Both the position numbers and the translations under genes were made by a program. Below the pieces are notes generated by a model. It did not search any database, was not told where the DNA came from, and saw only the letters and a list, made by a program, of their open reading frames with translations. Source: an uncultured Planctomycetia bacterium (GTDB lineage Bacteria; Planctomycetota; Planctomycetia; Pirellulales; Thermoguttaceae). From it: a stretch of 64,000 nucleotides of DNA. Location: positions 57,153-121,152 of the forward strand of contig CAWAAL010000024.1 in NCBI GenBank assembly GCA_963779975.1, given 5' to 3'. Of this stretch, positions 10,249 through 48,421 are shown piece by piece. Numbering within the stretch: position 1 is the first letter of the stretch; the number at the start of each line of letters is the position of its first letter.

Positions 10249-10397
10249 TTGCCTTTGCCTCATAGCGGCATACAATGATGGCAGAGTCGCGATACACTCG
10301 ATCGCGACTCTGCAACAAGAATGTCGGATGACTAGATAGAGAGCAACCCGGCCGTACGGGGAGGCTCGTTAGTGAGTAAGCCGACGTGGTCGAATAG
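10249..10397 (+). ncRNA. multi-copy promoter-RNA element, copy 1 (3'-truncated, terminator missing); span includes promoter
   Basis: -35 TTGCCT 10249-54, 16-bp spacer, -10 TACAAT 10271-76; 5' hairpin gcagagtcgcgat/atcgcgactctgc; core tgtcggatgactagatagagagcaacccggccg...; homology ends at gtcgaata (10397) where the minus-strand transglutaminase fragment begins. Confidence 0.6.
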
Positions 10398-10819
10398 TCG
10401 TACAGCTCGCGCAGTTGCGTTTCCGGCAGTTCGACGGGCGCCAAATACGGGAAGAGCATCATGTGCTCCCAAGGCATCCAGACCAGTGGAAACGACGGAC
10501 GGATTGGCGCACGAGTGAAGGCGAACGGGTTGACGCCGGACAAGGCAATCGTGGACTCGGCCGTGAGTATGAGTTCCGTGTAGGGTTGGCTGATCTCGAA
10601 TCGACTGGCCGAATTGCCAAAGACATCTTCGAATTCCATGATCGGGACGGCGGGAACAATCTGCAAGCGATAGTTCAAGACGCTCTGATGGACGTCATTG
10701 ATCGGCCGCAGGTGGACGCAATGCTTGCTGTGCTGAACGGGCTGATTGTAACCAAACCGGGTCGTGTGCTTGACAGTCAAGCGACGGCTGCCAATCGTGG
10801 ACGGGACGGGCATGGTCAT
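10395..10819 (-). pseudogene. N-terminal fragment (~143 aa) of a transglutaminase-like protein (Bact_transglu_N domain), truncated at the junction with RNA-element copy 1
   Basis: 'MTMPVPSTIGSRRLTVKHTTRFGYNQPVQHSKHCVHLRPI...' is a typical Bact_transglu_N start; beyond ~aa 143 the ORF merely translates the repeat element. Confidence 0.5.
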
Positions 10820-10836
10820 GATGAGGGTCTGAACGG

Positions 10837-11241
10837 CTACTTCTTCTTAACGTCGCGGAGCATCGGCGACTCGGCCAGGGTGAAGAGAACGACCTCCTCG
10901 CCGGTGACGGTGCTAATGTCGTGGTGCATGCTCCGCACCTTGATGCCGGTGATCTCCTGGACCAGCGTTTCCAAGATCGGACGGGCCGTTTCGATCAGAT
11001 GCGTCCGCACTTGCTTGAGCAGGTCGCGCCCCTTCTCGGCAGAGAGCGACTTGACGAGTTGCTGCTCGGCGGCGGTCAAAACGCCTTGCAGGCGGACCAC
11101 GAGCAGATCGCCGAGCAGGTGCGCGTGAATATCCTTGGGTCCCCGGCCCATATAGTCCTGCTCGAAGCGTGTCACTGCTTCGCAGACGGCGGATTCGATC
11201 TCTCCGTGGGTTCTCATGGCAATTTCTCGCTGGGTTCTCAA
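10837..11241 (-). CDS. standalone DUF2294-like protein (134 aa)
   Basis: 'EIESAVCEAVTRFEQDYMGRGPKDIHAHLLGDLLVVRLQGVLTAAEQQLVKS...SMHHDISTVTGEEVVLFTLAESPMLRDVKKK'; stop TAG (plus-strand cta at 10837-39). Confidence 0.65.
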   Translation of the reverse strand: MRTQREIAMRTHGEIESAVCEAVTRFEQDYMGRGPKDIHAHLLGDLLVVRLQGVLTAAEQQLVKSLSAEKGRDLLKQVRTHLIETARPILETLVQEITGIKVRSMHHDISTVTGEEVVLFTLAESPMLRDVKKK

Positions 11242-11414
11242 GAAAGTGGATTATAGCAGATGAACGAAGTTGAGGAAAGCGGTCGAGTAACGCCCTTGAA
11301 CCAGTGGAAGGTCGATCGCCCCGGCGTTCTTGCCAGTCGGGTTATAGCCAGTCGGCAAGGGATCGCTAAAATATAGATGTAACCGCTCCAAAGAGCTTGA
11401 ATGCTCGGATTACG

Positions 11415-11530
11415 ATGAATGTTTGTCGGATGACTAGATGAAATACAACCCGGCCTTGCCGGGGGGTTCGTTGAAGAGTAAGCCGACGTGGCCGAATACC
11501 TGCGGGTGTTCCGCCACGTCGGCTTTTTTG
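11415..11530 (+). ncRNA. multi-copy RNA element, copy 2 (5'-partial: lacks canonical promoter and 5' hairpin; has core + terminator)
   Basis: tgtcggatgactagatgaaatacaacccggccttgccggggggttcgttgaagagtaagccgacgtggccgaatacctgcgggtgttccgccacgtcggcttttttg. Confidence 0.55.
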
Positions 11531-11604
11531 TTTCCGTGGTGCAAGACGGTCGGAATCCATTCACGGAAGGCTACTTCTCGGCCCAAGCATTGGAGGATAG
11601 GATC

Positions 11605-11883
11605 ATGTTGTTCTTGGCGCAATCACTACTCACGATGGCGGGCTTTGAGTACGACGAAATCGACGAAACCTGGGTAGCGCGAATGCCGTTGCGTCCTCTT
11701 GTGGCGGTCGAATGCGACGAGGATCGAGCTTACGTCCGGGAGGCGCTGAGGGAGGTCCAAGCGAGTCTTGACGCTATCGGCTGCGCCTACGACAACTACT
11801 TCGTGGTCAACGGCCGCTTCGTCTCCGTCCCAGGGCCTAGCGCCCGTGCGGCTACGGGTCTGGACGAACAGGATGACGGTTAA
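11605..11883 (+). CDS. hypothetical acidic small protein (92 aa) downstream of element copy 2
   Basis: RBS ggaggatagg before ATG 11605; protein-like composition; overlaps antisense ORF 11626..12048 whose first ~50 codons also look coding (unresolved). Confidence 0.35.
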   Translation: MLFLAQSLLTMAGFEYDEIDETWVARMPLRPLVAVECDEDRAYVREALREVQASLDAIGCAYDNYFVVNGRFVSVPGPSARAATGLDEQDDG

Positions 11884-12071
11884 AGTCGTCCCCATCCTGT
11901 GCAGGGCAGGATCGGATCGAGCCCGCTCAGCCAATGTCTCGTCAATCTGATGGATCATCCGGCAGGATCGGTCCATCAGGTCCCTCGCCTCCTGTTCATT
12001 GATCTTCAGGTTCCACTTCACGTCGTTGAGCCGCAGGTTACCACACAACTGAAGACCGTAATCGTGCGCGC

Positions 12072-12248
12072 CTACCCGGTCACGTTCTTCACGGCTTTCT
12101 TTACCGCGCAGGCAGCCTTTTGGACGGCCTGCTTCGCCTTCCCGACCACTTGGTCGGTCTTTCCTTCGTCACGAAGCTTGTCGTTGCCGGTCAGCGCCCC
12201 GGCGGCTTCCTTGATTCGACCCTTCACCACGTCTGTCTTGCCACCCAT
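12072..12248 (-). CDS. CsbD-family general stress protein (58 aa; below the ORF-track length cutoff)
   Basis: reverse-complement translation MGGKTDVVKGRIKEAAGALTGNDKLRDEGKTDQVVGKAKQAVQKAACAVKKAVKNVTG*; RBS ggagtcacc upstream. Confidence 0.6.
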   Translation of the reverse strand: MGGKTDVVKGRIKEAAGALTGNDKLRDEGKTDQVVGKAKQAVQKAACAVKKAVKNVTG

Positions 12249-12574
12249 GATGGTGACTCCTTTCCTATAAAGCCCGGAATGGAGAATGCAACAGGTAGGG
12301 CCAATGCAGCGAATTTCGGACGTAAGTGCTTCAAAGTGAAGTGGTTCCGCCGATGGCTGCGGTCATTCTCTGTGCCTCGCTGGGGAACAAACTGTTTCCA
12401 GCCAAGATGAAACAGGCCCAGCAATTCGGTCCATGCCGTCTCGTTGGATGGCAGCGGCACGAAGGGCAGCGTAGCCGACAGGCAAGGCTTCCCTTTCATG
12501 AACAAATGCCCTATTGGTTGTATTTAATTACAGCAGCCAAAGCAGGGGCCCACAAGGGTCCGGCGCCAGGAAAG

Positions 12575-12672
12575 GACCTGAACGGCTACTTCTTCTTTAC
12601 GTCGCGGAGAATGAGCGACTCGGCGCGGGTGAAGAGAACGACCTCCTCGCCGGTGACGGTGCTGATGTCGTT
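12575..12672 (-). pseudogene. 3' fragment (~27 codons + 10 nt downstream) of a DUF2294 gene, co-duplicated with element copy 3
   Basis: ctgaacggctacttcttctttacgtcgcggagaatgagcgactcggcgcgggtgaagagaacgacctcctcgccggtgacggtgctgatgtcg matches the 3' end of gene 10837..11241; rc encodes ...DISTVTGEEVVLFTRAESLILRDVKKK*. Confidence 0.6.
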
Positions 12673-12694
12673 TGAAAGAAAGCCAAAAGCTCTA

Positions 12695-12880
12695 TTGCCT
12701 TCGCCGCGTAGCGGCGTATGATAGTTGTATTGGGAGAATCGCGGCGCACTTGATCGCGACCTTTCAACGCAATTGTCGGATGACTAGATAGAGAGCAACC
12801 TGGATGTGCCAGGGGGCTCGTTGAAGAGTAAGCCGACGTGGTCGAATGCCTTCGGGTGTTCCGCCACGTCGGCTTTTTTC
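12695..12880 (+). ncRNA. multi-copy promoter-RNA element, copy 3
   Basis: -35 TTGCCT 12695-700, -10 TATGAT 12717-22 (16-bp spacer); 5' hairpin; core with compensatory cctggatgtgccagg hairpin; terminator gccgacgtgg...ccacgtcggcTTTTTT (12874-79). Confidence 0.65.
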
Positions 12881-12953
12881 GTTTTCGGTGTTGCGGGAAC
12901 AGTCGCAACGACCGAGCATGGTCCTTGGACAATCTCAAAAAGGGAGAGTTATC

Positions 12954-13028
12954 ATGTACATCGGTGGCGGATTGGTTACGCTTGTGATCATCGTCTTGGT
13001 TGTCATGTTCCTCGTTCGCGGCTCTTGA
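12954..13028 (+). CDS. possible 24-aa hydrophobic peptide (MYIGGGLVTLVIIVLVVMFLVRGS), resembles the C-terminal half of DUF3309
   Basis: RBS aaaagggagag 6 nt before ATG 12954. Confidence 0.25.
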   Translation: MYIGGGLVTLVIIVLVVMFLVRGS

Positions 13029-13075: not shown

Positions 13076-14764
13076 ATGACCGTACGTCACATTTGCCCAT
13101 GGTGCAGAGTCGCCGCACTGGCAACCCTGGGCGCAATAGTTGGCTTGCACAAGGCTACCGCCGTACCGCCGGGCCCGACGGATGCCGCGGATGGGATACA
13201 AGTGCTCACGCGCGGGCCGGTGCATGAGGCCTTCGCGGAAACGGTGACCTTCGATCCGCAACCGGGCATCGTGGCGCCGAAAGCGCCGCCGGCCGCCATC
13301 GAAGAACTTCCGCCGGACCAGAAACCGGAGGGGGCCAACATCGCCTGGATCCCCGGCTACTGGGCCTGGGACGACGAACGAAGCGACTTCCTTTGGGTCA
13401 GCGGCATCTGGCGCGACCTTCCGCCGAGCCGCCAATGGGTGCCCGGTTATTGGGACCAGTCCGGGCAAGGCTACCAATGGACTTCCGGGTACTGGGCGGA
13501 TGCCCAGGCGAGTAACGTGCAATATTTGCCCGAACCGCCTGTGACCGCCGAAGCCGGTCCCAACATTCCGTCGCCTTCGCCGGACGACACTTGGCTGCCG
13601 GGAAGTTGGCTGTGGCAGCAAAACCGCTATGCTTGGCGTCCCGGTCTCTGGGCCACCGCACATCCGGATTGGGAGTGGGTTCCCGCCCATTACCTATGGG
13701 CTCATCGCGGCTATGTTTTTGTCGACGGCTACTGGGATTACTCCATCGGCCGCCGCGGCGTACTGTTTGCGCCAGTGTATTTCAGTGCGGGCATGTATAC
13801 GCAGCCCCGTTTCTCCTATTCGCCCGCGACGGTGATCGATCTGGATGTTTTCACCAACTGTCTGTTCTTGAGGCCGCAATATCAACACTACTATTTCGGC
13901 GACTACTACGCCGACAATTATCAAGCAGCGGGGTTCTACCCGTCGTATTCGTACAACTCCGGCCGCCATGGCTACGATCCGATTTTCACCCACGAGCGCT
14001 GGCAGCATCGCCAGGACGGACAGTGGGAGCGTCGCATTGCGGCCGACTTCCAGAACCGCCGCGATCACGCGGATGCCCGACCGCCGCGGACGTTGGCGGC
14101 GCAAACAGCATTCAGGGCCGGCGAGGCGACGTCCGGAAAGAGGAGTCCCGTGCTGGCCGTGCCGTTCTCCCAATTCACGAAGAGTCAGAATAGTCCGCTG
14201 CGATTCCAGCCGGTCGATTCGTTGGAGCGACAAAAGCTGGTTCAGCACGTGCAAGCGGTGCAACGATTCCGCGAGCAGCGGCAGAAACTGGAGAACCAAG
14301 CAGCGGCGCCCTCAGCCGCCTCAGCGGCGAGACAATTCGCGCCGGCCAACGGGAGACTTCCCACCTCTCCGATCGCGACGAGGTCAAACACGGAACTCGG
14401 CAAGGATCACGTTCCACCCCAGATGCATGTAGCTCCCAAGCCGGATCTCACGGTCGAGGCCAAGCCGAGAGCGACTCCATCGCTGGAGAAACCGCAGCAA
14501 CGCACCGTGAACCGGCTGCCGCTCGATACGCCGAAACCTGAACCCCGGGCCGAACGGCCGGCACCGAAAGCGGAACCCCGGGTCGAACGGCCGGCACCGA
14601 AAGCGGAACCCCCGGTCGAACGGCCGGCACCGAAACCTGAACCCCAGGTCGAACGCCCAGCGCCGAAACCTGAACCCCAGGTCGAACGCCCAGCGCCGAA
14701 ACCGCCGGCAGAGCGACCGGCAGCGGGACCGAACCGAAATGGACAAAAGGAAAAGGGTAAATAG
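13076..14764 (+). CDS. secreted Trp-rich repeat protein with Pro/Glu-rich C-terminal tandem 11-aa repeats
   Basis: signal peptide 'MTVRHICPWCRVAALATLGAIVGLHKA'; repeated 'GYWxW/SGxW' modules; 5x33-bp DNA tandem repeat 14540..14704 encoding (EP)RVERPAPKA. Confidence 0.6.
   Translation: MTVRHICPWCRVAALATLGAIVGLHKATAVPPGPTDAADGIQVLTRGPVHEAFAETVTFDPQPGIVAPKAPPAAIEELPPDQKPEGANIAWIPGYWAWDDERSDFLWVSGIWRDLPPSRQWVPGYWDQSGQGYQWTSGYWADAQASNVQYLPEPPVTAEAGPNIPSPSPDDTWLPGSWLWQQNRYAWRPGLWATAHPDWEWVPAHYLWAHRGYVFVDGYWDYSIGRRGVLFAPVYFSAGMYTQPRFSYSPATVIDLDVFTNCLFLRPQYQHYYFGDYYADNYQAAGFYPSYSYNSGRHGYDPIFTHERWQHRQDGQWERRIAADFQNRRDHADARPPRTLAAQTAFRAGEATSGKRSPVLAVPFSQFTKSQNSPLRFQPVDSLERQKLVQHVQAVQRFREQRQKLENQAAAPSAASAARQFAPANGRLPTSPIATRSNTELGKDHVPPQMHVAPKPDLTVEAKPRATPSLEKPQQRTVNRLPLDTPKPEPRAERPAPKAEPRVERPAPKAEPPVERPAPKPEPQVERPAPKPEPQVERPAPKPPAERPAAGPNRNGQKEKGK
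14540..14704 (+). repeat. 5 x 33-bp tandem repeat (coding, Pro-rich linker)
   Basis: gaaccccgggccgaacggccggcaccgaaagcg unit repeated with a few substitutions. Confidence 0.8.
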
Positions 14765-15096: not shown

Positions 15097-16311
15097 CTTG
15101 CTTCGCCCGAAGAAATACGAGCTGGAGATTCACGGCGCGAAGGTGAAACCAGGCTTCGAGGTCGATCCCGATGTCCCGGCCTGTCATTCGGAGGTGCGGG
15201 AACGTGTCCATAGGGTCCGGTCAGATCGCCTGTCGCCTTGCGGTTTGAGTCCTTATGACACGCCTTGGCGGCGGAACGACACCGGCCTTGCTGTGCCCAG
15301 TCCCACCGGGCAACCGTCGCTGAACGCCGCACTTTCGCCTCAATCTTCAGCGCCGGAGTCCAATTTTCCCGAACTACAGGCCATTCCCGATCTCGGCCCC
15401 CCGTCGTTCCCCGAAACGAATGGGCGGGAAGGCACGAGCCCGGCCGAGCCAGCCCTTGACCTGACTCGCAGCGTCGGACGGCCGGTCGCGCTTCCGCAGC
15501 AAACGTACACCCGCTCGTCGGAGTTATCCGACCGCTTGACGCAGATCGCACGCGGCAAGGGCATGCTCCCCGGTCAGGGCATCAACGTCTGCTCATAAGC
15601 AACGGCATCGCCCTCATGCACGGCACCGTCCGCACGCCCGGCGACTGCGTCCTGCTGGCGAACGTCCTGGCTCTCGAACCGGAGGTGCGGCAGATTGACA
15701 ACCGCTTGGTCGCCTTCGGTCCTCGGTAGGCTTTTTGGGCGATCGCCGGTGGCCGTTCGGGGTTCCGTGGCATTGACGCTTTGCGGGCGCTATCGTCGCT
15801 TGTACGCACTCCAGGGGGTAACTGGACGGGATTTCGCTGGTGTCGGCCGGCAAGGCCGGGTTCAGGCGATTACCGGGTCGATCGAGATTGTTGGCTGCGG
15901 CACGAATTGACCCGCCGACCTGAAACAGGGCGCGTAGCGTCGGTCCTGCACCACGGCATCCGGTCGAACCACCACCAGACGGCGCCCATGGCCACGAATT
16001 TGGCGGACCACGAGCACGGATTCCGCATTAAGAAGTGGACACCGAATGAGAGTGATGCCCAGAGTGCTGGGCCGGATCAGAAGGACAATGGGCCATGGCA
16101 GAAAGTGAAACCTTCCGGGCGCTGCACGACAACAGTACGACACCAAAGACAAACAGTGCGGCGCTCGGAGGTTCCTCCCGCGCCGGAAAAGCCGAGCCGA
16201 CACCTGTGCCAATGGCGCCGCACGCATGCGCGCTACAGTACCTCATTTCCATCATCAAGAACTCGCAACGCAGGAGCCCGTCACAATAGAACGACTGAAG
16301 GATGGTGCCTC

Positions 16312-17763
16312 ATGGTAACAATGGACAAGTCCGAACCGGGGTCGATTCGCACCTATCTGATGCAAATGGGCGACATCCCTCTGCTCAGCCGGAGCGAGGA
16401 GTTGGCGACAGCTCGTCAAATCGACAAGACTCGCGGTCGGCTGCGGCGTGGCATGTTGTCCGCCCACTTTATCCTTCACGCGGCGATCGCCGCGGCGGAA
16501 GAAGTCCTGAGCGGCAAGCTGCGGTGGGACCAGGTGATCGAGTTATCGAACGATGATCCCAGGAAGGGGCAGATAACTCAGCTCTTGGAGACGAATTGCC
16601 GGACGCTCGGTCAGCTCCTGCGCTTGAACCGGAATGATTTCCGCATCGCCGTCGGTCATCGGAAGCATTCGCCGGACGATCGTCGGGCCGCACGGCGGCG
16701 GCTAGTCCATCGCCGTCGAAGGGCGGCGTCGTTGATCGAGGAAGTCGCGGTGCGAATGCCCTGCATGCAGTCGGCGCTGACCACGCTCAGGCAGATGTCC
16801 GAACGGATGACCGCCGTCGCCGTAGCGCGGGCGAAAGTGCAATCGGTTGCTGGCGAAGAACACCAACTTGAAGAGCTGCGCAAGGAAATGCGCTGCCTGA
16901 TGCGGGTCACGCAGGAAACCCCAGCCACGTTGCGCCGACACTTGACGCGGATCGCGGCGATGAGCAAAGAGCATGCAGCGGCCCGCCGCGACCTGGCGGC
17001 GGGCAACCTCCGTCTGGTCGTCTCGATCGCCAAGCGATACCGCAATCGCGGGCTGAGCTTGTTGGACCTGATCCAGGAAGGTAATACCGGCCTGATGCGG
17101 GCCGTCGATAAGTTCGAGTCCGCCCGCGGCTTCCGCTTCTCGACCTACGCTACCTGGTGGATCCGCCAGGCCATGAGCCGGGCGATCGCCGACCAGAGCC
17201 GGACCATCCGCGTGCCGGTCCACATGATCGAAAAGATGGGCAAGGTCCGCGACATCAATCGCGATCTGGTTCACAACGAGGGCCGCGAACCGACCCTGGA
17301 GGAAGTGGCCCAACTCAGCGGGCTGTCGATCGCCGACACGCAGCGGGCCTTGAAGATGAGCCGGCAACCGCTTTCCTTGGACCAACCCGTGGGCCATCAG
17401 GAAGAGAACTTCCTTGGCGACCTGCTCTTCGATCATCGCGAAGAAGATCCGCTGGCCGGCATGAACCAGGCCATGCTTCGTTCGAGCATCACCGACGTTT
17501 TGCAGACGCTCGACTATCGCGAGCGGGAGATCCTGCGGCTGCGCTACGGGCTGGCCGACGGCTACACCTCGACACTGCAGGAGATCGGCCGGATCTTCTC
17601 CGTCACCCGGGAGCGGGTCCGCCAGATCGAGTCCGAGGCGATCCGCAAGCTCCAGCGTCCGGCTCTGTCTCGCAAACTCGCAGGCTTTCTGGATGAGCAG
17701 ATCCCGCTGCTGAGCAACATCAACTTCGGTCTCAGCGGGATCGCCATGGCCGGGAATTTGTGA
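16312..17763 (+). CDS. RpoD-family sigma-70 factor (regions 1.2, 2, 3, 4)
   Basis: '[54 protein letters not shown]', '[30 protein letters not shown]'; RBS aaggatgg before ATG 16312. Confidence 0.85.
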
Positions 17764-17954
17764 CGGCCTGCCGGGACCGACTGGCAGTGGTCCATCTCCG
17801 CTTCCTTGCCGGCGCAACCATCTTGGACGGCAGAGCCTTGGCGATAAATGGCGCGGTAACACTCGATGACAACACGATCACCGCGCCAAGTTCGGTTCCA
17901 GAACCCGTATCCCTAAGCCCCATTGCCTTTGCCCTTTGGCGGCGTAAAATGTGA
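17764..17954 (+). pseudogene. C-terminal remnant of a DUF3494 (ice-binding-like) protein with PEP-CTERM-like tail; 5' part missing (abuts the sigma gene stop)
   Basis: 'ATILDGRALAINGAVTLDDNTITAP' vs 'ATILNGRALAQTGAVTMDTNTISNV' in the 18149..20779 protein; tail 'SSVPEPVSLSPIAFALWRRKM*' where the last codons coincide with the -35/spacer/-10 of element copy 4. Confidence 0.5.
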
Positions 17955-18105
17955 GTGTTGGAAGAGTCGCATGGCAGATCGCGCTGCTCCAACGTAATTG
18001 TCGGATGACTAGAAAGAGGGCAACCCGGCCCTGCCGGGGGGCTCGTTAGCGAGTAAGCCGACGTGGTCGAATACCTCCGGGTGTTCCGCCACGTCGGCTT
18101 TTTTC
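17924..18105 (+). ncRNA. multi-copy promoter-RNA element, copy 4 (complete)
   Basis: -35 TTGCCT 17924-29, -10 TAAAAT 17945-50; 5' hairpin gttggaagagtcgcatggcagatcgcgctgctccaac; core; terminator with TTTTTT 18099-104; gene ATG at 18149. Confidence 0.7.
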
Positions 18106-22296: not shown

Positions 22297-22443
22297 TTCG
22301 ATCGGACCCGCGCAATTGGAAATTGCAACAAACTGCGACACGTCGGCACAAACAGCATAACCGTCAAACTTTGCCAACTCGCGGGTGCAAGGTCGCCAAC
22401 AAGCAGCCAAAGCAGGGCCCGACAAGGGTTCGGCGCCACGAAA

Positions 22444-22548
22444 GGACCTGAACGGCTACTACTTCTTTACGTCGCGGAGAATGGGCGACTCGGCGCGGGT
22501 GAAGAAGAACGACCTCCTCGCCGGTGACGGTGCTGATGTCATTTGAAA
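22444..22548 (-). pseudogene. 3' fragment of a DUF2294 gene, co-duplicated with element copy 5 (same breakpoint as the 12575 fragment)
   Basis: ctgaacggctactacttctttacgtcgcggagaatgggcgactcggcgcgggtgaagaagaacgacctcctcgccggtgacggtgctgatgtcatttgaaagaaggcc. Confidence 0.55.
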
Positions 22549-22565: not shown

Positions 22566-22748
22566 TTGCCTTTACCCTTTGGCGGCGTACAATGTGACTG
22601 TTGGAAGAGTCGCATCGCAGATCGTGCTGCTCCAACGAAGTTGTCGGATGACTAGAAAGAGGGCAACCCGGCCCTGCCGGGGGGCTCGTTGACGAGTAAG
22701 CCGACGTGGTCGAATACCTCCGGGTGTTCCGCCACGTCGGCTTTTTTC
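22566..22748 (+). ncRNA. multi-copy promoter-RNA element, copy 5 (complete)
   Basis: -35 TTGCCT 22566-71, -10 TACAAT 22588-93; hairpin gttggaagagtcgcatcgcagatcgtgctgctccaac; core; terminator TTTTTT 22742-47; sigma gene ATG at 22778. Confidence 0.7.
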
Positions 22749-24979: not shown

Positions 24980-24981
24980 CT

Positions 24982-30396: not shown

Positions 30397-30581
30397 TTGC
30401 CTTTTTTGCGTGGCTGGTTACAATGACCGGTGGGAAGAGTCGCGGCGGACTAGACTGTGGCTTTTCACTGGAATTGTCGGATGACTAGATAGAGGGCAAC
30501 CCGGCCGTGCCGGGGGGCTCGGTAGCGAGTAAGCCGACGTGGTCGAATACCTGCGGGTATTCCGTCACGTCGGCTTTTTTC
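30397..30581 (+). ncRNA. multi-copy promoter-RNA element, copy 6 (complete)
   Basis: -35 TTGCCT 30397-402, -10 TACAAT 30419-24; core tgtcggatgactagatagagggcaacccggccgtgccgggggg; terminator TTTTTT 30575-80. Confidence 0.7.
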
Positions 30582-30636: not shown

Positions 30637-31170
30637 ATGTCCGAGAAGAAGTCCGTTGTCGCTATTTTTGAAACCCACGATCAAGCCGAGGACGCTGTTC
30701 GCGAACTCCAGAAGGACGGCTTCGACATGAAGAAGCTGTCGATCGTCGGCAAGGCTTACCTCACGGACGAGCACGTCGTCGGCTACTACAACACGGGCGA
30801 CCGCATGATGTATTGGGGCAAGCTGGGGGCCTTCTGGGGCGGCTTCTGGGGACTGCTCTTCGGCTCCGCGTTCTTCTGGGTGCCGGGCATCGGTCCGCTC
30901 GTCGTGGCGGGACCGTTGGTGACCTGGATCGTCGCCGGGCTCGAAGGCGCCGTCATGACAGGATCGCTCACCGCTCTCGGCGCAGGACTCTACAGCATCG
31001 GGATTCCCAAGAACAGCATCGTAGAATACGAGACCGAGGTGAAGAGCGGCAAGCTTCTCCTGGTTGCCCACGGAACGGCCGACGAAGTGGAACACGCCCG
31101 GGACCTCCTGCATCAGACGGGAGTGGAGACAGCAACGGTTCATGCGGAGCGGGTCGCAGTCGGCGTCTAA
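30637..31170 (+). CDS. stress-associated membrane protein, DUF1269/YflT-like (N-terminal soluble domain + Gly-rich TM region)
   Basis: 'SVVAIFETHDQAEDAVRELQKDGFDMKKLSIVGK' then 'GAFWGGFWGLLFGSAFFWVPGIGPLVVAGPLVTWIVAGLEGAVMTGSLTALGAGL'. Confidence 0.45.
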   Translation: MSEKKSVVAIFETHDQAEDAVRELQKDGFDMKKLSIVGKAYLTDEHVVGYYNTGDRMMYWGKLGAFWGGFWGLLFGSAFFWVPGIGPLVVAGPLVTWIVAGLEGAVMTGSLTALGAGLYSIGIPKNSIVEYETEVKSGKLLLVAHGTADEVEHARDLLHQTGVETATVHAERVAVGV

Positions 31171-38336: not shown

Positions 38337-38522
38337 TTGCCTTTTCCCTTCGGCGGCGTACAATTTCAGTGTTGGAAGAGTTGCGGGGCACTTGTTCGCG
38401 GCTCTCCAGTGAAATTGTCGGATGACTAGATAGAGGGCAACCTGGCTGTGCCGGGGGGCTAGTTGAAGAGTAAGCCGACGTGGTCGAACACCTTAGGGTA
38501 TTCCGCCACGTCGGCTTTTTTG
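38337..38522 (+). ncRNA. multi-copy promoter-RNA element, copy 7 (complete; 3' extension box aacggtcggaatccagcacggaag shared with copy 2)
   Basis: -35 TTGCCT 38337-42, -10 TACAAT 38359-64; hairpin gttggaagagttgcggggcacttgttcgcggctctccag; core with cctggctgtgccgggg; TTTTTT 38515-21. Confidence 0.7.
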
Positions 38523-38605: not shown

Positions 38606-39052
38606 ATGAGTCGAGATGCAATTGACAGAATGGAAATCCTCATGGTCGAGGATAACTTGCAGAATGCCAACGGCACGATACAGGCCCTCAAATGGGGCAA
38701 CGTGCAATGCCGAGTGAGCCTGGTCTGCGATGACGAGGAAGCGATCCGCTTTCTCTACCGTAAGGGTGAATTCGCCAAGGCGCCGACGCCCAACCTGATC
38801 CTGCTGGACATGCAGTTGCCCAAGGAGGAAGGTCAGCGCTTGCTTGCGGAAATCCGCGCCAACGAAGAACTCAAGGACATTCCCGTTGTGGTCCTCACCG
38901 GTTCACTGGATCACCGAGCGGGTCTTCACGTCCAAGAGATTCAGGTGGACGGCTTGATCACGCACCCCGTGGAGTTGGACAAGTTCATCGGTGTGGTCAA
39001 GTCGCGTCGCCGGTCTTGGTTGACCGACCTTGCGCTGTCCTCCATTGCCTGA
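38606..39052 (+). CDS. single-domain response regulator (REC only)
   Basis: 'ILMVEDNLQNANGTIQALKW...LILLDMQLPKEEGQRLLAEIRANEELKDIPVVVLTGS'; RBS ggaggtga. Confidence 0.75.
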   Translation: MSRDAIDRMEILMVEDNLQNANGTIQALKWGNVQCRVSLVCDDEEAIRFLYRKGEFAKAPTPNLILLDMQLPKEEGQRLLAEIRANEELKDIPVVVLTGSLDHRAGLHVQEIQVDGLITHPVELDKFIGVVKSRRRSWLTDLALSSIA

Positions 39053-40257: not shown

Positions 40258-40444
40258 TTGCCTTTGTACCCTCATGACGTACAATGATGGTGTTGGAAGA
40301 GTCGTGGCGCGATTGATCTCGACTCTCCAGCGAACGTGTCGGATGACTAGATGAAGAGCAGCCCGGCTGTGCCGCGGGGGCTCGTTAGTGAGTAAGCCGA
40401 CGTGGTCGAATACCTTGGGGCATTCCGCCACGTCGGCTTTTTTC
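40258..40444 (+). ncRNA. multi-copy promoter-RNA element, copy 8 (complete; preceded by a degraded DUF2294 tail at ~40130-40200)
   Basis: -35 TTGCCT 40258-63, -10 TACAAT 40280-85; hairpin ggaagagtcgtggcgcgattgatctcgactctcc; TTTTTT 40438-43. Confidence 0.7.
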
Positions 40445-40453
40445 GTTTTCCTA

Positions 40454-40525
40454 AGAACGTTCGGAAGAAATTGGTGCCAGTCACACGTTTGTCCCGGGCT
40501 TCCGCTCATTTCTTCCGAACGTTCT
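40454..40525 (+). promoter_or_regulatory. 5'-UTR hairpin: 18-bp perfect inverted repeat with 36-nt loop, 20 nt upstream of RBS/ATG 40545; paralogous copy at 48350-48421
   Basis: agaacgttcggaagaaat ...36 nt... atttcttccgaacgttct. Confidence 0.6.
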
Positions 40526-40544: not shown

Positions 40545-41531
40545 ATGCGTAGTGTTTTGATCATGACAGGCGTGGCTCTCGCGCTGGTCGCGATGGCGGT
40601 TGCCCAAGGACCACTGAAGAGCGTATCGGGCGACTTGCCCGACAAGCCCGCCGCGTCCGATACGGCAACGACGGCAACCGCCGCGTTTGTGGCCAGCCTG
40701 GCGCAGCCGCAAGACGAGAAGTCGATCCGGCTCGCCGCCGAGGCGTTTGCCAAGGCGTATAATGCGGGCAATGCCCAGACGATCGCGCAACTGTTCATAC
40801 CCAGCGGGGAGATAGTCAGCGAAGAAGGCCAATCTACTCAGGGCCGCGAAGCGATCGAGCAAGAGTTCGCAGGAATCTTCAAGGAACATCCCAAGACCCA
40901 CATGGTTCTGGCCATCGGCTCCATTCGGTTCATCGGTCCGGACATGGCCGTCGAGGACGGGACGGCGACCGTGACCCATGGGCCCGACGAGCCCGCCCAG
41001 CGCAGTCCCTACTCGGTGACCTACGCCAGGCAGGACGGCAGGTGGCTGACGGCCAGCTCGCGAGACCTTCCCGATGACACGCCCACGCCCGAGGAGCAGC
41101 TCAAGCAACTCCAGTGGATGATCGGCGAATGGGTGGACGAAAGCCCGGAAGCCCTGATCATGACCTCCTACCGCTGGACCGACAATCAATGCTACATCTT
41201 GAGCGAATTCAAGGTCCAGGTCGGCGGCCGGCCGGTGATGACCGGTACCCAGCGCATCGGCTGGGACCCCTTGGCAAAGAAGATCCGTTCCTGGGTCTTC
41301 GACTCGGAAGGCGGGTTTGGCGAAGGTCTCTGGACGCGGGAAGGCAACCAATGGATCGTGAAAAGGACCGGCGTGACGCGTGACGGAAAGACCGCCTCGG
41401 CGACCAACATCATCGCCCGAGTATCCAAGGACCGAATGACGTGGCAACAACGGGACCGCATCGTCGGCGGGGAGAAGACGCCCGACATCGCGGAAACCCC
41501 GATCACGCGTAATCCGCCCGCCCCCAAATAA
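40545..41531 (+). CDS. secreted protein with two SnoaL-like/DUF4440 (NTF2-fold) domains
   Basis: signal peptide 'MRSVLIMTGVALALVAMAVAQG'; 'AFAKAYNAGNAQTIAQLFIPSGEIV...GREAIEQEF' and a second NTF2-like half. Confidence 0.5.
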   Translation: MRSVLIMTGVALALVAMAVAQGPLKSVSGDLPDKPAASDTATTATAAFVASLAQPQDEKSIRLAAEAFAKAYNAGNAQTIAQLFIPSGEIVSEEGQSTQGREAIEQEFAGIFKEHPKTHMVLAIGSIRFIGPDMAVEDGTATVTHGPDEPAQRSPYSVTYARQDGRWLTASSRDLPDDTPTPEEQLKQLQWMIGEWVDESPEALIMTSYRWTDNQCYILSEFKVQVGGRPVMTGTQRIGWDPLAKKIRSWVFDSEGGFGEGLWTREGNQWIVKRTGVTRDGKTASATNIIARVSKDRMTWQQRDRIVGGEKTPDIAETPITRNPPAPK

Positions 41532-43228: not shown

Positions 43229-43339
43229 GGATCGGCGGGCTCGAGATTCGGACCACCCGACCCCATCTTGACCTGCGCGGCCGCGGGTGCGACAATGCTG
43301 TCGTACTTGGTCCTAAGGCCATTGGTGAGTCGGACGGCC

Positions 43340-43918
43340 ATGAAATCGAGCCGATCTTCTCGTGTCACGCAACTCCTGGAGAAACCCGGACCGGGGGACC
43401 GCCCTGCCGCAGAGCAGTTGTTTGCGGACGTCTACGGCGAACTGCGATCGCTTGCCGCGCGATACCTGCACCGGGAACGAAAGAGCCATACGCTTCAGCC
43501 GACCGCGCTGGTTCACGAAGCCTACTTGAAGCTCGTCGGTCAAACGCGCGTGGATTGGCAGGGCCGGGCCCATTTCCTGGCCATTGCCGCTCACGCCATG
43601 CGAGAGATCCTCGTCGATCATGCTCGGCGGCATAAGGCAAAAAAGCGGGGTGGCAATCGGCATCGCATCGCGCTGGACGACAACCTGGCCGTCGAGTCCA
43701 ATCGCGACGTGGACCTGTTGGCGCTGGAAGACGCCTTGGCCAAGCTCGCAAAGCTCGACCCGCGCCAGGCCCAAATGATCGAACTCCGATTCTTTGGCGG
43801 CCTGGACATCGCGGAAGTCGCGAAGGTGATGGGGATGTCCAAACGATCGGTGGAGCGGGAATGGACCATGGTTCGCGCCTGGTTGCGGCGGGAACTCGGC
43901 AGGAGCGGCACGCCATGA
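43340..43918 (+). CDS. ECF sigma factor (Ser/Thr-kinase-associated type)
   Basis: 'LFADVYGELRSLAARYLHRERKSHTLQPTALVHEAYLKLV', 'AQMIELRFFGGLDIAEVAKVMGMSKRSVEREW'; stop overlaps the kinase ATG. Confidence 0.8.
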   Translation: MKSSRSSRVTQLLEKPGPGDRPAAEQLFADVYGELRSLAARYLHRERKSHTLQPTALVHEAYLKLVGQTRVDWQGRAHFLAIAAHAMREILVDHARRHKAKKRGGNRHRIALDDNLAVESNRDVDLLALEDALAKLAKLDPRQAQMIELRFFGGLDIAEVAKVMGMSKRSVEREWTMVRAWLRRELGRSGTP

Positions 43919-45007: not shown

Positions 45008-46570
45008 CTAGTTGTCCACGTCCTTCCGGAGGGGCAATTGGACCACGATCCGGGTTCCCTTGCCCAAGCTGCTCGTGATGGTCGCGGATCCCCCAAACAA
45101 CTTTGCGCGTTTCTGAATTCCTTCCAAGCCAAAGTGGCCGTCGCCGACTTCACGGGGATTGAAGCCGATGCCCCAGTCTTGGACCTCAATCAGAACGTGC
45201 CGGTTCCGCCGGGTCAACCTGACGAGCACGCGCTCGCTCTGGCTGTAGCGGCGGGCGTTGGCAAGGCCCTCTTGCAGGATCCGATAAATGGTATTTTCCG
45301 ACGCGGGCTCCCACCGCTCGCCGTCGAGGTTATGGACGAACTCGATCTCTGGTTTGCCCGGAGCGCTGCCTTGGGAGATAAGGTCCTCGATGGCAGCCAC
45401 CACGCCGCATTCGTCCATGAGCGGTGAACGCAGTCCACGGATCAACCGGCGTGCTTCCCGCATACAGTCGTCAAGCGCTCTTAGTCCAGTCTCGAAACTC
45501 GTCCAGACCTCGCCGTCTCCCTCTCCTTTGAACCGGCTGAACGCCGCAAAGTGCGTGATCGCGGCGGCGAGTTGCTGGACGAATCCGTCGTGGATTTCGC
45601 AGGAAACCACTTGTCGATCCCGGTCCTGCAATTCCAGCAAGTGGCGGAGATACTGCTGCTCCTTGAGCGACTGTTCCTCTGTCTGCCGACGCTCCTTGAT
45701 CTCCGGCCTCGACGGTTCGGCGGCTTGATCGCGGCCAAGCCCGGCGGCGTGCCCAGGGACGGGATCGGTATCCAGGCCCAGGAACTGCGGACCTTGCGAC
45801 GCCCACTCGGTCGGGTCCAAGGGCCCCGTGACCCTAGTAAGACCGAGATCCAGCGTGCGGAGTTGTCTCAACCCCTTGAGGTGCTCCATGCCGGCGTCGC
45901 TGACCTCGGTGCCGCGGAGGCCCAGCGACTGGAGTTGCCTCAATCCCTTGACGTGTTCCAGGCCGGCGTCCGTGACCTTGGTGCCGCCGAGGTCGAGTTC
46001 TCGAAGTCGGGGCAGACCCCTGAGGTGCTTCAGATCGGCGCCGGTAGCCCAGAAGCACAATTCTTCGAGTTCGGGCAGACCGCGGAGGTGCTGCAAACCG
46101 GCATCGGTGACTTCGGTGCCGCCGAGCCCCAGTTCTTGGAGTTGCCGCAACGCCTGGAGGCGCTTCAGACCGGCGTCGGTGACCTTGGCGCCGCTGAGGT
46201 CCAGCGTCTGGAGTTGGGGCAGATCCTCAAGGTGCTCCAGGCCGGCGTCGCTGACCTCGGCGCCGCCGAGGTCCAGCGTCTGGAGTTGGAACAGACCCTT
46301 GAGGTGTTCCAGACCGGCGTCGCTGACCTTGGTGCCGCCGAGGTCCAGCGTTTGGAGTTGCGTCAGCCCCTTCAGGTGTTCCAAACCGGCGTCGCCGACT
46401 TCCGTGTGGGAGAGATACAACTCTCGGAGCAGGGGCAAGTCCTTGAGGCACTCCAAGGCGTCGTCGTCGAGCAGGCACCAGGAGAGGTCAACGGATATCG
46501 CAACGTCGCCTCGCAACAACTGGATCTTGGCAATCGCCTCTGCGCAATCCGGGTAATCTGGCTTCATCAT
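45008..46570 (-). CDS. cytoplasmic leucine-rich-repeat (9 x 24-aa LRR) - HisKA_3 - HATPase_c sensor histidine kinase
   Basis: repeats 'LxxLxxLDLGGTKVSDAGLEHLKG'; 'VVSCEIHDGFVQQLAAAITHFAAF' (HisKA_3 H-box); 'LQEGLANARRYSQSERVLVRL...DWGIGFNP...GLEGIQKRAKLFGG'. Confidence 0.75.
   Translation of the reverse strand: MMKPDYPDCAEAIAKIQLLRGDVAISVDLSWCLLDDDALECLKDLPLLRELYLSHTEVGDAGLEHLKGLTQLQTLDLGGTKVSDAGLEHLKGLFQLQTLDLGGAEVSDAGLEHLEDLPQLQTLDLSGAKVTDAGLKRLQALRQLQELGLGGTEVTDAGLQHLRGLPELEELCFWATGADLKHLRGLPRLRELDLGGTKVTDAGLEHVKGLRQLQSLGLRGTEVSDAGMEHLKGLRQLRTLDLGLTRVTGPLDPTEWASQGPQFLGLDTDPVPGHAAGLGRDQAAEPSRPEIKERRQTEEQSLKEQQYLRHLLELQDRDRQVVSCEIHDGFVQQLAAAITHFAAFSRFKGEGDGEVWTSFETGLRALDDCMREARRLIRGLRSPLMDECGVVAAIEDLISQGSAPGKPEIEFVHNLDGERWEPASENTIYRILQEGLANARRYSQSERVLVRLTRRNRHVLIEVQDWGIGFNPREVGDGHFGLEGIQKRAKLFGGSATITSSLGKGTRIVVQLPLRKDVDN
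45850..46420. repeat. ~72-bp near-perfect tandem DNA repeats encoding the LRR units
   Basis: recurring ...ccggcgtcgctgacctcggtgccgcggaggcccagcgactggagttgc... blocks. Confidence 0.7.
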
Positions 46571-46670
46571 TCACTATTCCTTAATTCGCTCCCTACTGTT
46601 AATGCGAAATCCGCGCTGTGCGTCCGCCAGATTCCGAAAATCGCAGACGCGGAAAAAGACGACAATCCAC

Positions 46671-46862
46671 TTGCTTTCCTCATGCCGCGCCATACAATGG
46701 TTAATGGAGGGGTGGCGAAGTCGAAAGCCGCTCGCCCCAGAAGTGAATTGGAAGTCGTCGGACGACTAGATAAAGAGCAAGCCGGCCGTGCCGGGGGGCT
46801 CGTTAGTGAGTAAGCCGACGTGGCGGAATACCTCCGGGTGTTCCGCCACGTCGGCTTTTTTC
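46671..46862 (+). ncRNA. multi-copy promoter-RNA element, copy 9 (variant: TTGCTT -35, tcgtcggacgactag core)
   Basis: -35 46671-76, -10 TACAAT 46693-98; core gtcgtcggacgactagataaagagcaagccggccgtgccgggggg; TTTTTT 46855-61. Confidence 0.65.
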
Positions 46863-46899
46863 GTTCTTGATCGTTTCTTAACCAATACAGAGGATCGTC

Positions 46900-47115
46900 A
46901 TGAGAAGGCTGATGTTCGTGGTCGTTTTGCTCGTGATCGGCATCGCCGGCTTCGGGTATTACCGCGGTTGGTTCGCTTTCACGGTGGACAAAGACAAGTT
47001 CCACCAAGATGAACAAACAACCAGGGAAAGGGTGCAAGGCGCCGGGCAAGAGGCCAAGGAAAAGGTCGACAATCTGACTGGCGGCAAGGTCAAAGAACCC
47101 CAGCGCCAACCCTGA
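46900..47115 (+). CDS. small N-terminally anchored membrane protein (71 aa)
   Basis: 'MRRLMFVVVLLVIGIAGFGYYRGWFAF...'; RBS cagaggatcg. Confidence 0.45.
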   Translation: MRRLMFVVVLLVIGIAGFGYYRGWFAFTVDKDKFHQDEQTTRERVQGAGQEAKEKVDNLTGGKVKEPQRQP

Positions 47116-47200
47116 GACTTTACACTTTGTGGATGCTAATCACGGACCATGTTGGCATTTCGCCAACTTGGGCACACTATACGTGAAGGAGAATTTGATC

Positions 47201-47377
47201 ATGTTACGGCTTGCTATCGTGTTCCTCGTCATCGCCCTGATCGCCGGGTTCCTCGGCTTTGCAGGAGTGGCACAATTATCCTGGGACGGAGCGAAGATCC
47301 TCTTCGTTGTCTTCCTGATCCTCGCCGTGCTCTCTTTCGTGGGGCACGGTTTCCGGAGGCGACCCTACTGGGGGTAA
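47201..47377 (+). CDS. DUF1328 (UPF0391) small membrane protein
   Basis: 'MLRLAIVFLVIALIAGFLGFAGVAQLSWDGAKILFVVFLILAVLSFV'; RBS gaaggagaat. Confidence 0.6.
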   Translation: MLRLAIVFLVIALIAGFLGFAGVAQLSWDGAKILFVVFLILAVLSFVGHGFRRRPYWG

Positions 47378-47384
47378 CGCATAG

Positions 47385-47571
47385 TTGCCTTTTTCCCCTT
47401 GCGGCGTATAATGATGGTGCTGGCAGAACCGCGACGCACTTCATCGCGACTCTGGCAGTGAAATTGTCGGATGACTAGATAGAGAGCAACCCGGCCGTGC
47501 CGGGGGGCTCGTTAGCGAGTAAGCCGACGTGGTCGAATACCTGCGGGTGTTCCGTCACGTCGGCTTTTTTG
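47385..47571 (+). ncRNA. multi-copy promoter-RNA element, copy 10 (complete), directly upstream of hsp20
   Basis: -35 TTGCCT 47385-90, -10 TATAAT 47407-12; hairpin; core tgtcggatgactagatagagagcaacccggccgtgccgggggg; TTTTTT 47565-70, 29 nt before the ATG. Confidence 0.7.
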
Positions 47572-47599
47572 TTTTCTTACCCGAAAGGAAGGTGCCACA

Positions 47600-48010
47600 A
47601 TGTCGGAAAACCGCATCAAGATCGCTCCCGAGACAGTAGCGTATGCTGACTCGGAGACGCGCAAGCTCGTGGTGGAATTCGCCATCCCGGGAGCGCCCAC
47701 GGATTCCATCGACGTGAAGATCCTGGGAGACAGCATCCACCTGACGGCGCCCGCAAGGGACATCGAGTATGTTTCGGCCCTGGCTTTAGCCTGGCCGGTG
47801 AAACCGGACAAAGCCGAAGCGATCTACGAGCACGGACTGCTCCGCATCGAGGTGCCCTTCAAAGATCCGATGGAGGATGCCGTGAAGGTTGCCATCAAGA
47901 CAGCCGGTACCGAAACCAAGCCCGCAGTAATCGCGACTCCAGCGGTTCCGCCGGCGGTTGGACGCGGCAGTAGCAAGCCGCTGGCCGTCGAACCGGCCTT
48001 AACGGTCTGA
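47600..48010 (+). CDS. Hsp20/alpha-crystallin family small heat-shock protein
   Basis: 'ETRKLVVEFAIPGAPTDSIDVKILGDSIHLTA...AIYEHGLLRIEVPF'; RBS gaaaggaaggtg. Confidence 0.7.
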   Translation: MSENRIKIAPETVAYADSETRKLVVEFAIPGAPTDSIDVKILGDSIHLTAPARDIEYVSALALAWPVKPDKAEAIYEHGLLRIEVPFKDPMEDAVKVAIKTAGTETKPAVIATPAVPPAVGRGSSKPLAVEPALTV

Positions 48011-48138
48011 GCCGCGGGCCTTAACGGCCTGAGCCACGCCAGGGCACGCGTTGCCCCAGGCCTCGGTTTCTCAGCGGCGACAGGCTGTTGATCACGCTAA
48101 CTGCCGTGCCAACTTGCACGGCCATTTGGAAAGGCCGC

Positions 48139-48339
48139 TTGTGCTTCTCTTTCCGTACGGTATAATTGGAGTGTGCTGCGAGGCGGCGGAGAGCTCCGCG
48201 CGACTTGCTGACGCAGTGGATTTGAATTCGTCGGATGACTAGATAAAGAGCAACTCGGCCGGAATGGCCGGGGGGCGCGTTGAAGAGTAAGCCGACGTGG
48301 GCGAATGCCTTTGGGTGTTCGGCTACGTCGGTTTTTTTG
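48139..48339 (+). ncRNA. multi-copy promoter-RNA element, copy 11 (most divergent)
   Basis: -35 TTGTGC 48139-44, -10 TATAAT 48161-66 (16-bp spacer); core tcgtcggatgactagataaagagcaactcggccggaatggccggggggcg; terminator gccgacgtgggcgaatgcctttgggtgttcggctacgtcggTTTTTTT. Confidence 0.6.
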
Positions 48340-48349
48340 TTTTCTGCTT

Positions 48350-48421
48350 AGAACGTTCGGAAGAAATTGGTGCGAGTCCCGCGTTTTTCCAGGGCTTCCG
48401 CCCATTTCTTCCGAATGTTCT
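48350..48421 (+). promoter_or_regulatory. 5'-UTR hairpin paralogous to 40454-40525 (18-bp inverted repeat, 1 mismatch), 27 nt upstream of ATG 48448
   Basis: agaacgttcggaagaaat ... atttcttccgaatgttct. Confidence 0.55.

Follow-up and report, generated by a model that had tools for sequence, protein, structure and literature searches.

A phylum-wide, multi-copy family of structured leader RNAs upstream of general stress genes in Planctomycetota

Why does a single bacterial locus carry the same promoter, structured RNA and intrinsic terminator again and again, upstream of its genes? This question is raised by a 64,000-nt stretch of DNA from an uncultured Planctomycetia bacterium (GenBank assembly GCA_963779975.1, contig CAWAAL010000024.1, positions 57,153 to 121,152), which is called the window in this text. 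The initial annotation of the window described at least eleven near-identical cassettes of this kind on the + strand and left it open whether they are riboswitch- or attenuator-like leaders or sibling small RNAs (sRNAs). We analyzed these cassettes within the window and in other genomes. The cassette RNA is an undescribed, phylum-wide, multi-copy leader family, which is tied to general stress genes and most probably controls them as a new terminator-based leader.

A repeat search of the window identified a 111-nt core as an eleven-member family (starts 10321 to 48232, all on the + strand), the members of which are 63-100% identical to the reference copy. The 41-nt terminator hairpin (CCGACGTGG...CCACGTCGGC) also forms an eleven-member family on the + strand, one member of which stands alone at 9048. 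When the eleven units were aligned, their parts were seen to be placed in one common order, as had been claimed: promoter, variable hairpin, core (AATTGTCGGATGACTAGA...GAGTAAG) and terminator hairpin followed by T6-7. When the window was scanned with our own covariance model, ten full copies were matched at 104-123 bits and no further full copy was found. The copy at 10249 (c10249; the other copies are named in the same manner in Table 1) was matched at 10315-10422 with 64 bits: it breaks off within the terminator arm, lacks the U-tract and has no + strand gene downstream. The degenerate hairpin, which had been noticed near 9046, was detected as a terminator relic (8960-9095, 22.5 bits). Thus, the eleven-member core family is real but one member is truncated, and the window contains ten complete cassettes, besides the truncated copy at 10249 and the terminator relic at 9047. 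The folding energy of one full copy was -75 kcal/mol (z = -4.97 against dinucleotide shuffles).

The promoter had been described as TTGCCT, exactly 16 bp and TACAAT or TATAAT. Our own promoter scan found the 16-bp spacer in eight of the ten complete copies, and a generic sigma-70 consensus scan independently detected TTGCCT-16-TA(C/T)AAT at 30397, 38337, 40258 and 47385. However, the description does not hold for every copy: when read by eye, c48139 possesses TTGTGC-N16-TATAAT, which is located further upstream, and c11415 possesses only a degenerate TAGCCA-N16-TAAAAT in the canonical register. In the homologues described below, a promoter of the form TTG(C/T)nT plus TA(C/T/G)(A/G)AT was detected in 100 of 137 cases, and the spacer is 16 bp in 82 of these 100 promoters. 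The sequence of the 5′ hairpin, where this hairpin is present, is not conserved but folds better than shuffled sequences (mean z -2.1, 80 cases). The window copies, too, retain the 5′ hairpin with differing sequences, in agreement with the initial description of a stem-loop that varies in sequence and retains its pairing. In some species, no more than 7-15 nt separate the -10 box from the core: the 5′ hairpin has been lost and the core and terminator have been kept. Therefore, the 5′ hairpin is dispensable. The spacers themselves were also inspected. Pirellulales-type spacers contain a GC-rich palindrome, CCGC-N3-4-GCGG, ending with GCGGCG directly before TACAAT (for example, at 12701-12716 and 17930-17945 in the window and in loci L003, L107 and L113). 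In other lineages, different spacers, conserved within each lineage, were read by eye. The palindrome may be an operator or a sigma-specific discriminator.

The framing of the cassettes as a near-identical local family understated their distribution. We searched one genome per GTDB species with the pattern GTCGGAYGACTAGA-N30-60-AGTAAGCC, and at least 118 loci were found to carry the core pattern. Among the matches listed, 113 of 118 are labelled Planctomycetota, and the lineages represented are Pirellulales, Thermoguttaceae, Lacipirellulaceae, Planctomycetaceae, Gemmataceae, Isosphaeraceae, Phycisphaerales and Tepidisphaeraceae. The classes Planctomycetia and Phycisphaerae are covered, including metagenome-assembled genomes (MAGs). 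The planctomycete origin of the DNA that the initial annotation had guessed is thereby correct. The other five loci (L032, L056, L073, L082 and L107) belong to MAGs that bear other labels, namely delta proteobacterium or Deltaproteobacteria (two), Victivallales, Chloroflexota and Methanomassiliicoccaceae; either planctomycete contigs were mis-binned here, which is possible, or the distribution is wider than the phylum. Several genomes contributed five or six separate 8-kb blocks each, with up to four copies per block. A covariance model built from 133 sequences gave approximately 155 full-length matches in the window and 99 loci. In the model-based alignment, 34 of 122 matches do not fit the search pattern, and the best conserved elements in these pattern-free copies are UCGGA-N-GACU, parts of the inner stem and GAGUAAGCCGACGUGG. 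The cassette RNA is a phylum-wide RNA family and not a local repeat.

Covariation was tested on the 122 matches of the model-based alignment, with slid partners and 500 shuffles as controls. In the terminator and the core hairpin, 96.4% of cells are paired, as compared with 33-44% when the partners are slid. Double changes were observed in 23 of the 29 pairs of these two helical parts and amount to 209 cells against about 26 in the shuffles; none of the 500 shuffles reached the observed values. For example, AU, GC and GU are exchanged at positions 28-77, CG, GC and UA at positions 33-71 to 36-67, and AU and GC at positions 97-158. Absence of covariation had been named in the initial annotation as an observation that would speak against a structured RNA; in fact, covariation in the core hairpin and terminator is strong. 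G·U pairs are frequent (67 UG at positions 23-82 and 55 GU at positions 24-81). Therefore, the structure belongs to the + strand transcript and is not a DNA palindrome. The core forms a rod whose internal loops are symmetric and conserved; in them, GG-AUG-ACU stands opposite AGU-AAG-CC and AGA(U/C)RRR opposite GUUNNNG. Approximately 40 nt are invariant across two classes of the phylum. Throughout the phylum, the terminator hairpin keeps its sequence, bulges included, and the 5′ arm is conserved beyond the need for pairing: position 97 is only A or G, either of which pairs with U10.

Of 137 instances among the homologues, 125 have an open reading frame (ORF) of at least 50 aa that starts within 400 nt of the RNA on the same strand and is preceded by a Shine-Dalgarno (SD) sequence; the median gap is 64 nt. 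Most of the 12 instances without such an ORF still show a DUF2294-type start on the same strand. The combined SD and ORF test was used because the longest stop-free frame is uninformative about the strand at this GC content. An SD-preceded start on the same strand is located within 120 nt downstream of the RNA in 71% of cases; in the controls, the divergent side of the promoter gave 31% and random positions gave 27%. Independent gene calls in public assemblies place the RNA 33, 156 and 90 nt 5′ of same-strand genes, two of the three being DUF2294 genes, and the placement of the RNA before orthologous DUF2294 genes is retained between distant lineages. Thus, as in a riboswitch, a structured domain with covariation is positioned 5′ of same-strand genes. 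In the window, the initial claim that each copy is followed by a + strand ORF within 25-90 nt needs correction: the gaps are 35-115 nt, c10249 has no such ORF and the first ORF behind c12695, 80 nt away, encodes only 24 aa; the first long ORF there begins at a distance of 202 nt. This 24-aa ORF (MYIGGGLVTLVIIVLVVMFLVRGS) is strongly hydrophobic, possesses a good ribosome-binding site and lies between c12695 and a gene for a WXXGXW protein. Elsewhere, genes for small membrane proteins (DUF3309 and DUF1328) are common partners of the RNA.

The 125 downstream proteins were assigned to Pfam families. The commonest partner is DUF2294/MpsC (YbcI), with 25 proteins, followed by Transgly_assoc (five), GT1/GT4 glycosyltransferases and DUF4440/SnoaL (four each), and Ice_binding, DUF3309, HSP20, CsrA, Response_reg, CsbD and YflT (three each). 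Sigma-70 and DUF1328 were assigned twice each, and HSP70 and KaiC once each. Such families are typical of the general stress regulons under sigma-B, EcfG or RpoS. The downstream genes form a coherent general-stress set, which includes DUF2294/MpsC, CsbD, YflT, GlsB-type proteins, Hsp20, DUF3309, DnaK, sigma factors, receivers and CsrA. For the ORF behind c47385, the likeness to Hsp20 was read from the sequence, and a Pfam match at E ≤ 0.001 is absent. The leaders of DUF2294 genes possess an additional conserved motif after the terminator, GGAAGACGTTCGCAAT, which is limited to them and lies outside the family core.

How might a strong terminator between a promoter and its gene be used? The GUCGG at the start of the core is identical to the terminator 3′ arm and complementary to the first five nucleotides of the 5′ arm (CCGAC). 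We consider it moderately probable that the cassettes are conditional-termination leaders of general stress genes, in which the invariant GUCGG competes with the terminator 3′ arm for CCGAC. Each unit would supply a general-stress-type gene or operon with its promoter and its 5′ leader. Transcription would start a few nucleotides past the TAcAAT box, and the variable 5′ hairpin would be made first, followed by the invariant core (UCGGA-N-GACUA...GAGUAAG) and then by the terminator (GCCGACGUGG...CCACGUCGGC and U6-8). By default, the terminator would form, an RNA of approximately 150 nt would be released and the downstream gene would stay off. Alternatively, the CCGAC of the terminator 5′ arm would pair with the GUCGG at the core start. 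This helix (P1) would close a long rod, consisting of P1, a 3x3 loop, ACU/AGU, an internal loop, P2 and P3. The rod would shift the remaining hairpin 6 nt from the U-tract, and RNA polymerase would then read into the gene. Such a design is that of a classical ON-switch attenuator. We infer that a trans-acting signal (a protein, a small molecule or an ion) reads the invariant internal loops and sets the balance between the two folds; one signal would govern dozens of stress operons.

Folding calculations are consistent with two alternative structures. The full-length window RNAs fold as terminators. In contrast, when the ten window RNAs were cut before the 3′ arm, the minimum-energy fold of all ten was the whole core rod closed by GUCGG/CCGAC. 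In the four copies for which energies were computed, the values were -25 to -31 kcal/mol for the rod, -31 to -35 kcal/mol for the terminator and -17 to -21 kcal/mol for the residual hairpin under P1, and this residual hairpin sits 6 nt off the U-tract. Moreover, several gaps between the RNA and the gene are only 35-50 nt, as between c47385 and the Hsp20-like gene and between c22566 and the sigma factor gene. These gaps leave no room for a separate promoter and, therefore, the genes must be transcribed through the terminator. The promoter, RNA, terminator and gene anatomy, from which the initial annotation had suggested a riboswitch or attenuator, is thus correct, and a terminator/antiterminator alternative exists thermodynamically, although P1 itself lacks covariation support.

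This last point is one of several that weigh against the conditional-termination leader. P1 can pair in 97.7% of cells but is nearly invariant, which is why it has no covariation support, and most of its rare variants lack a compensating change. In GUCGG, the first G is replaced by A, U or C, uncompensated in eight copies and compensated in one. Two GCCGG variants face CCGAC (C·A) and never the matching CCGGC. Because the P1 variants are mostly uncompensated and the helix is nearly invariant, UCGGA is conserved for more than pairing; a factor most likely reads UCGGA together with the invariant loops. The conservation of the terminator hairpin and its bulges is unusual for a mere expression platform and fits a functional free RNA. 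In addition, the gene set does not indicate a specific ligand, and DUF2294, the commonest partner, has a V4R/Bet3-like fold and is not an obvious RNA binder.

The functional product could instead be the terminated RNA itself, that is, a set of trans-acting sibling sRNAs of approximately 150 nt made from many stress-induced promoters. These would act by base-pairing via the invariant, single-stranded UCGGAUGACUAGAU, or would titrate a protein such as CsrA at the GGA of the GUC-GGAU-GAC hairpin. The linkage to stress genes would then reflect co-regulation, and such a role could coexist with a leader role in a dual-function RNA. Nearly all copies possess their own promoter and a strong terminator, several paralogues are present, and the phylum-wide conservation of the terminator with its bulges is expected of a stable RNA or ribonucleoprotein. 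In the full-length fold, the invariant stretch is predicted to be unpaired or to form a GGA-tetraloop mini-hairpin; csrA lies downstream in 3 of the 125 cases, and the CsrC model of Rfam gives a weak match (17.5 bits), far under its gathering score of 61. However, the same-strand orientation and the short distance to the gene are far above the controls, and some gaps are too short for a separate promoter. A CsrB/RsmZ-type sponge, which has multiple GGA motifs that mostly lie in hairpin loops, is difficult to reconcile with only one conserved GGA per RNA (in UCGGA), since the second GGA, in the 5′ hairpin arm, is lineage-specific. The placement relative to the neighbouring gene is strongly non-random, and within the window, where targets were sought, complements of the invariant stretch are not above chance (11 self-matches and 5 others, with 6.7 expected). 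We regard the sRNA explanation as unlikely, but as the most serious competitor of the conditional-termination leader.

It is also conceivable, but quite improbable in our judgement, that control is exerted at the promoter, by a stress sigma factor or by a repressor at the 16-bp spacer, while the RNA is passive, the terminator leaks at a fixed rate and the hairpins merely stabilise or insulate the transcript. The promoter is indeed a conserved part of the unit (16-bp spacer in 82/100, -35 TTGC, -10 TA(C/T)(A/G)AT), the spacer sequences are conserved within lineages with a CCGC-N4-GCGG palindrome in Pirellulales copies, and a sigma-70-family gene lies behind one cassette with two more sigma genes nearby. 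A passive leader, however, would not keep about 40 nt invariant over two classes, nor covarying helices with conserved loops; a strong terminator placed behind the promoter and ahead of the gene carries a cost unless it serves a purpose; and where the promoter lies 7-15 nt from the core, it is the 5′ hairpin that is lost, whereas core and terminator are kept. Finally, the units might be mobile or repeat DNA (MITE-like, recombination or att-type) that has spread in the island without RNA function. The copy density is high and there are signs of segmental duplication: c12695 and c22566 share a junction with upstream DUF2294 remnants, which indicates that a segment was duplicated, and c17924 and c22566 are 95% identical. 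The initial annotation had also named a known insertion sequence or miniature inverted-repeat transposable element (MITE) as an identity to be checked. The repeat search of the window did not report terminal inverted repeats or target duplications around the units, transposases are not associated with them, and their sites are not variable: distantly related lineages keep them at one position ahead of orthologous DUF2294 genes. Moreover, the G·U pairs, which are specific to one strand, and the compensatory changes are signals at the level of RNA. This explanation is therefore very improbable. A cis-acting leader is favoured because of the phylum-wide same-strand position, the gaps that are too short for a second promoter and the coherent set of stress genes.

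Is this leader an RNA that has already been described? When the 64-kb window was scanned with Rfam 15 at gathering thresholds, no match was obtained, in agreement with the initial statement that the sequence matches no known RNA family. At E ≤ 10, the region 46600-48450, which contains three copies, gave only sub-threshold chance matches, namely CsrC (17.5 bits against 61), ctRNA_pGA1 (19.5 against 45) and miRNA models on the terminator. Full-text literature searches, including literal core sequences, did not find a description of the RNA, and we found no mention of planctomycetes in three Breaker/Weinberg surveys of noncoding RNAs. The Rhodopirellula-1 motif (Weinberg et al. 2010, PMC2864571), which is absent from Rfam, is the only published multi-copy motif of planctomycetes that our search brought up. 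It is planctomycete-dominated and has many copies per genome (36 in R. baltica), which occur in clusters with spacings of at least about 500 nt and precede short hypothetical genes; its consensus is a single hairpin, AAC..GAU-GCAC-CGG-AG...CC-CGGUGAUC..CGUU (PMC2864571). The cassettes resemble this motif in being multi-copy, clustered and 5′ of short genes, but the hairpin is different: the base AAC(A/C)A...CGUU and the GAU/GCAC/CGG-AG bulged stem do not occur in them. A sequence-only profile of 25 Rhodopirellula-1 members had no significant match in the window and the 118 loci (best E 6.1), although a relative in structure could escape a profile of this kind. In 200 of the 438 supplementary files of PMC2864571, among them the Rhodopirellula-1 alignment with flanks, the core strings were not found. 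We therefore rejected identity with Rhodopirellula-1, because the consensus differs and the profile matches nothing here.

Among well-known systems, the closest parallels are partial: the element would work in the manner of a terminator-based riboswitch or of a protein-dependent antitermination leader and resembles a family of sibling sRNAs, but it belongs to none of the families tested. The c-di-GMP-I (GEMM) riboswitches include terminating ON switches, with many copies per genome and functionally diverse downstream genes. Like them, the cassettes place many copies of a 5′ leader domain before diverse genes, and the predicted closing helix of this domain could capture the terminator 5′ arm. 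However, the cassette fold is a single rod with symmetric internal loops and not a multi-helix junction, the terminator sequence is conserved phylum-wide, the promoter is part of the unit and the closing helix does not covary. In the protein-dependent antitermination leaders (ANTAR targets, RAT/LicT, TRAP and PyrR), one regulator serves several operons. Alternative terminator and antiterminator folds, which are known in these leaders, are predicted for the cassettes too, but dual hexaloop hairpins, the RAT sequence, (G/U)AG arrays and the PyrR loop are all absent from the cassettes, and DUF2294 resembles a ligand-binding fold. The ANTAR signature consists of two tandem short hairpins with hexaloops, in which positions 1 and 4 are A and G, and the second hairpin overlaps the terminator arm; such hexaloops are not found in the covariation-supported structure, which is one long rod plus the terminator. 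Qrr1-5, LhrC1-5, CcsR1-4 ("cuckoo" RNAs) and RsmX/Y/Z are stress-linked families of sibling sRNAs with their own promoters and Rho-independent terminators. The cassettes are similar in that several near-identical RNAs per genome possess their own promoter and terminator and are linked to stress. In contrast to these sRNAs, the cassettes lie immediately 5′ of a same-strand gene, contain only one GGA and no repeated seed loops, and have a much greater copy number and phylogenetic depth. ROSE elements are RNA thermometers of rhizobial small heat-shock genes, which mask the SD sequence and act on translation without a terminator. Both are 5′ leaders shared by many stress (hsp) genes per genome, with rod-like hairpins and non-canonical pairs; however, the SD sequence lies outside the cassette element, the output is a terminator and the sequences are unrelated. 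As a separate matter, a leader peptide (AUG-ACU-AGA-stop in the core) was considered and rejected, since many copies have ACG, or A or G, at that codon.

The cassettes of the window and the genes behind them are collected in Table 1. They stand in a regulator-rich island. At its 5′ edge (7184-9974) are genes for a PAS-HisKA-HATPase-REC hybrid kinase and a REC-DUF2294 protein. Further regulators (15781-17763, 22778-23791 and 43268-43918) comprise a 660-aa sigma-70-like factor, an ECF sigma factor, a Ser/Thr kinase fragment and a - strand leucine-rich repeat (LRR) histidine kinase. The sigma factor behind c22566 has 337 aa and a Mor-like N-terminal region.

Table 1. Cassettes in the window, with their parts and the features that follow them
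Name	Position	Strand	Contents and downstream features
relic	9047..9088	+	terminator-type hairpin alone, without core or U-tract; 25 nt 5′ of REC-DUF2294 gene 9114-9974
c10249	10249..10394	+	promoter, 5′ hairpin, core and first 16 nt of terminator arm; abuts broken - strand transglutaminase-N gene
c11415	11345..11530	+	degenerate promoter, diverged 5′ hairpin, core, terminator; 119 bits; then 92-aa ORF 11605-11883
c12695	12695..12880	+	then 24-aa hydrophobic ORF 12954-13028, then WXXGXW protein gene 13076-14764
c17924	17924..18105	+	then ice-binding-like 876-aa protein gene 18149-20779
c22566	22566..22748	+	then sigma-70-family factor gene 22778-23791, acetate kinase, phosphoketolase, PPK2
c30397	30397..30581	+	then YflT-domain stress protein gene 30637-31170, Band 7, P-type ATPase, methyltransferase
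c38337	38337..38522	+	then receiver-only response regulator gene 38606-39052
c40258	40258..40444	+	then 88-nt hairpin 40438-40525, DUF4440/SnoaL gene 40545-41531, TPR, ECF sigma, Ser/Thr kinase
c46671	46671..46862	+	then 71-aa ORF 46900-47115
c47385	47385..47571	+	35-nt gap, then 136-aa alpha-crystallin/Hsp20-like ORF 47600-48010
c48139	48139..48339	+	then 88-nt hairpin 48334-48421, GT1/GT4 glycosyltransferase gene 48448-49683

Several other features of the window were observed. The 88-nt hairpin listed behind c40258 and c48139 is a second shared element, located between the terminator and the start codon of the two genes: the two copies are 85% identical and form a long hairpin with an 18-bp stem (AGAACGTTCGGAAGAAAT...ATTTCTTCCGAACGTTCT). 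The Rhodopirellula-1 profile did not match it, and Rfam gave only a spurious mir-671. An intact DUF2294/MpsC gene is encoded on the - strand at 10864-11238. In addition, three remnants of DUF2294 3′-ends (...HHDISTVTGEEVVLF...) are present on the - strand at 12616-12678, approximately 22402-22505 and 30275-30346, and these abut the promoters of c12695, c22566 and c30397. Divergent pairs of DUF2294 genes, with the RNA before one member only, recur in the homologue loci L119 and L123. The region 10249-10819 is a rearrangement scar, where the truncated c10249 meets a truncated - strand gene with a transglutaminase-N domain; the Pfam match to this domain covers residues 14-91 of a 230-aa frame, which runs across c10249. 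At 61316-61398, four tandem 21-bp units (TTTCCCCGTCAGGAAGCAAT), each with a TTCC-N8-GGAA inverted repeat, are found in intergenic DNA directly 5′ of a - strand GuaC/IMPDH-like gene (60249-61295), and this array looks like an operator or iteron array. Two tandem repeats are coding: 33-bp units at 14498-14737 in the C-terminal part of the WXXGXW protein, and 72-bp units at 45828-46466, which are the leucine-rich repeats of the - strand LRR histidine kinase.

Planctomycetes possess few recognisable transcription factors. In a study of the R. baltica stress transcriptome, "novel global regulation mechanisms" were suspected (PMC2754498). An invariant leader common to CsbD, YflT, GlsB-type, Hsp20, DnaK, sigma factor and DUF2294 genes would define a general stress regulon by sequence alone, and the covariance model would allow its annotation in hundreds of genomes. 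The leader would also provide a defined target for finding a new effector, either a riboswitch ligand or an antiterminator protein, and would link the uncharacterised DUF2294/MpsC (YbcI) family to stress control. We tentatively raise a larger possibility, to which we give somewhat less than even weight: in Planctomycetota, the general stress response may have a single phylum-specific RNA switch as its master cis-element. Dozens of operons per genome would share one invariant aptamer-like rod and one terminator, and one signal would flip all of them from termination to read-through. Candidates for this signal are a stress metabolite, an ion and a dedicated RNA-binding antiterminator that receives its input from the PAS-kinase and receiver proteins of the islands. 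The released 150-nt RNAs may, in addition, act in trans. If this is true, the leader family would be an RNA-based counterpart of the sigma-B, RpoS and EcfG regulons.

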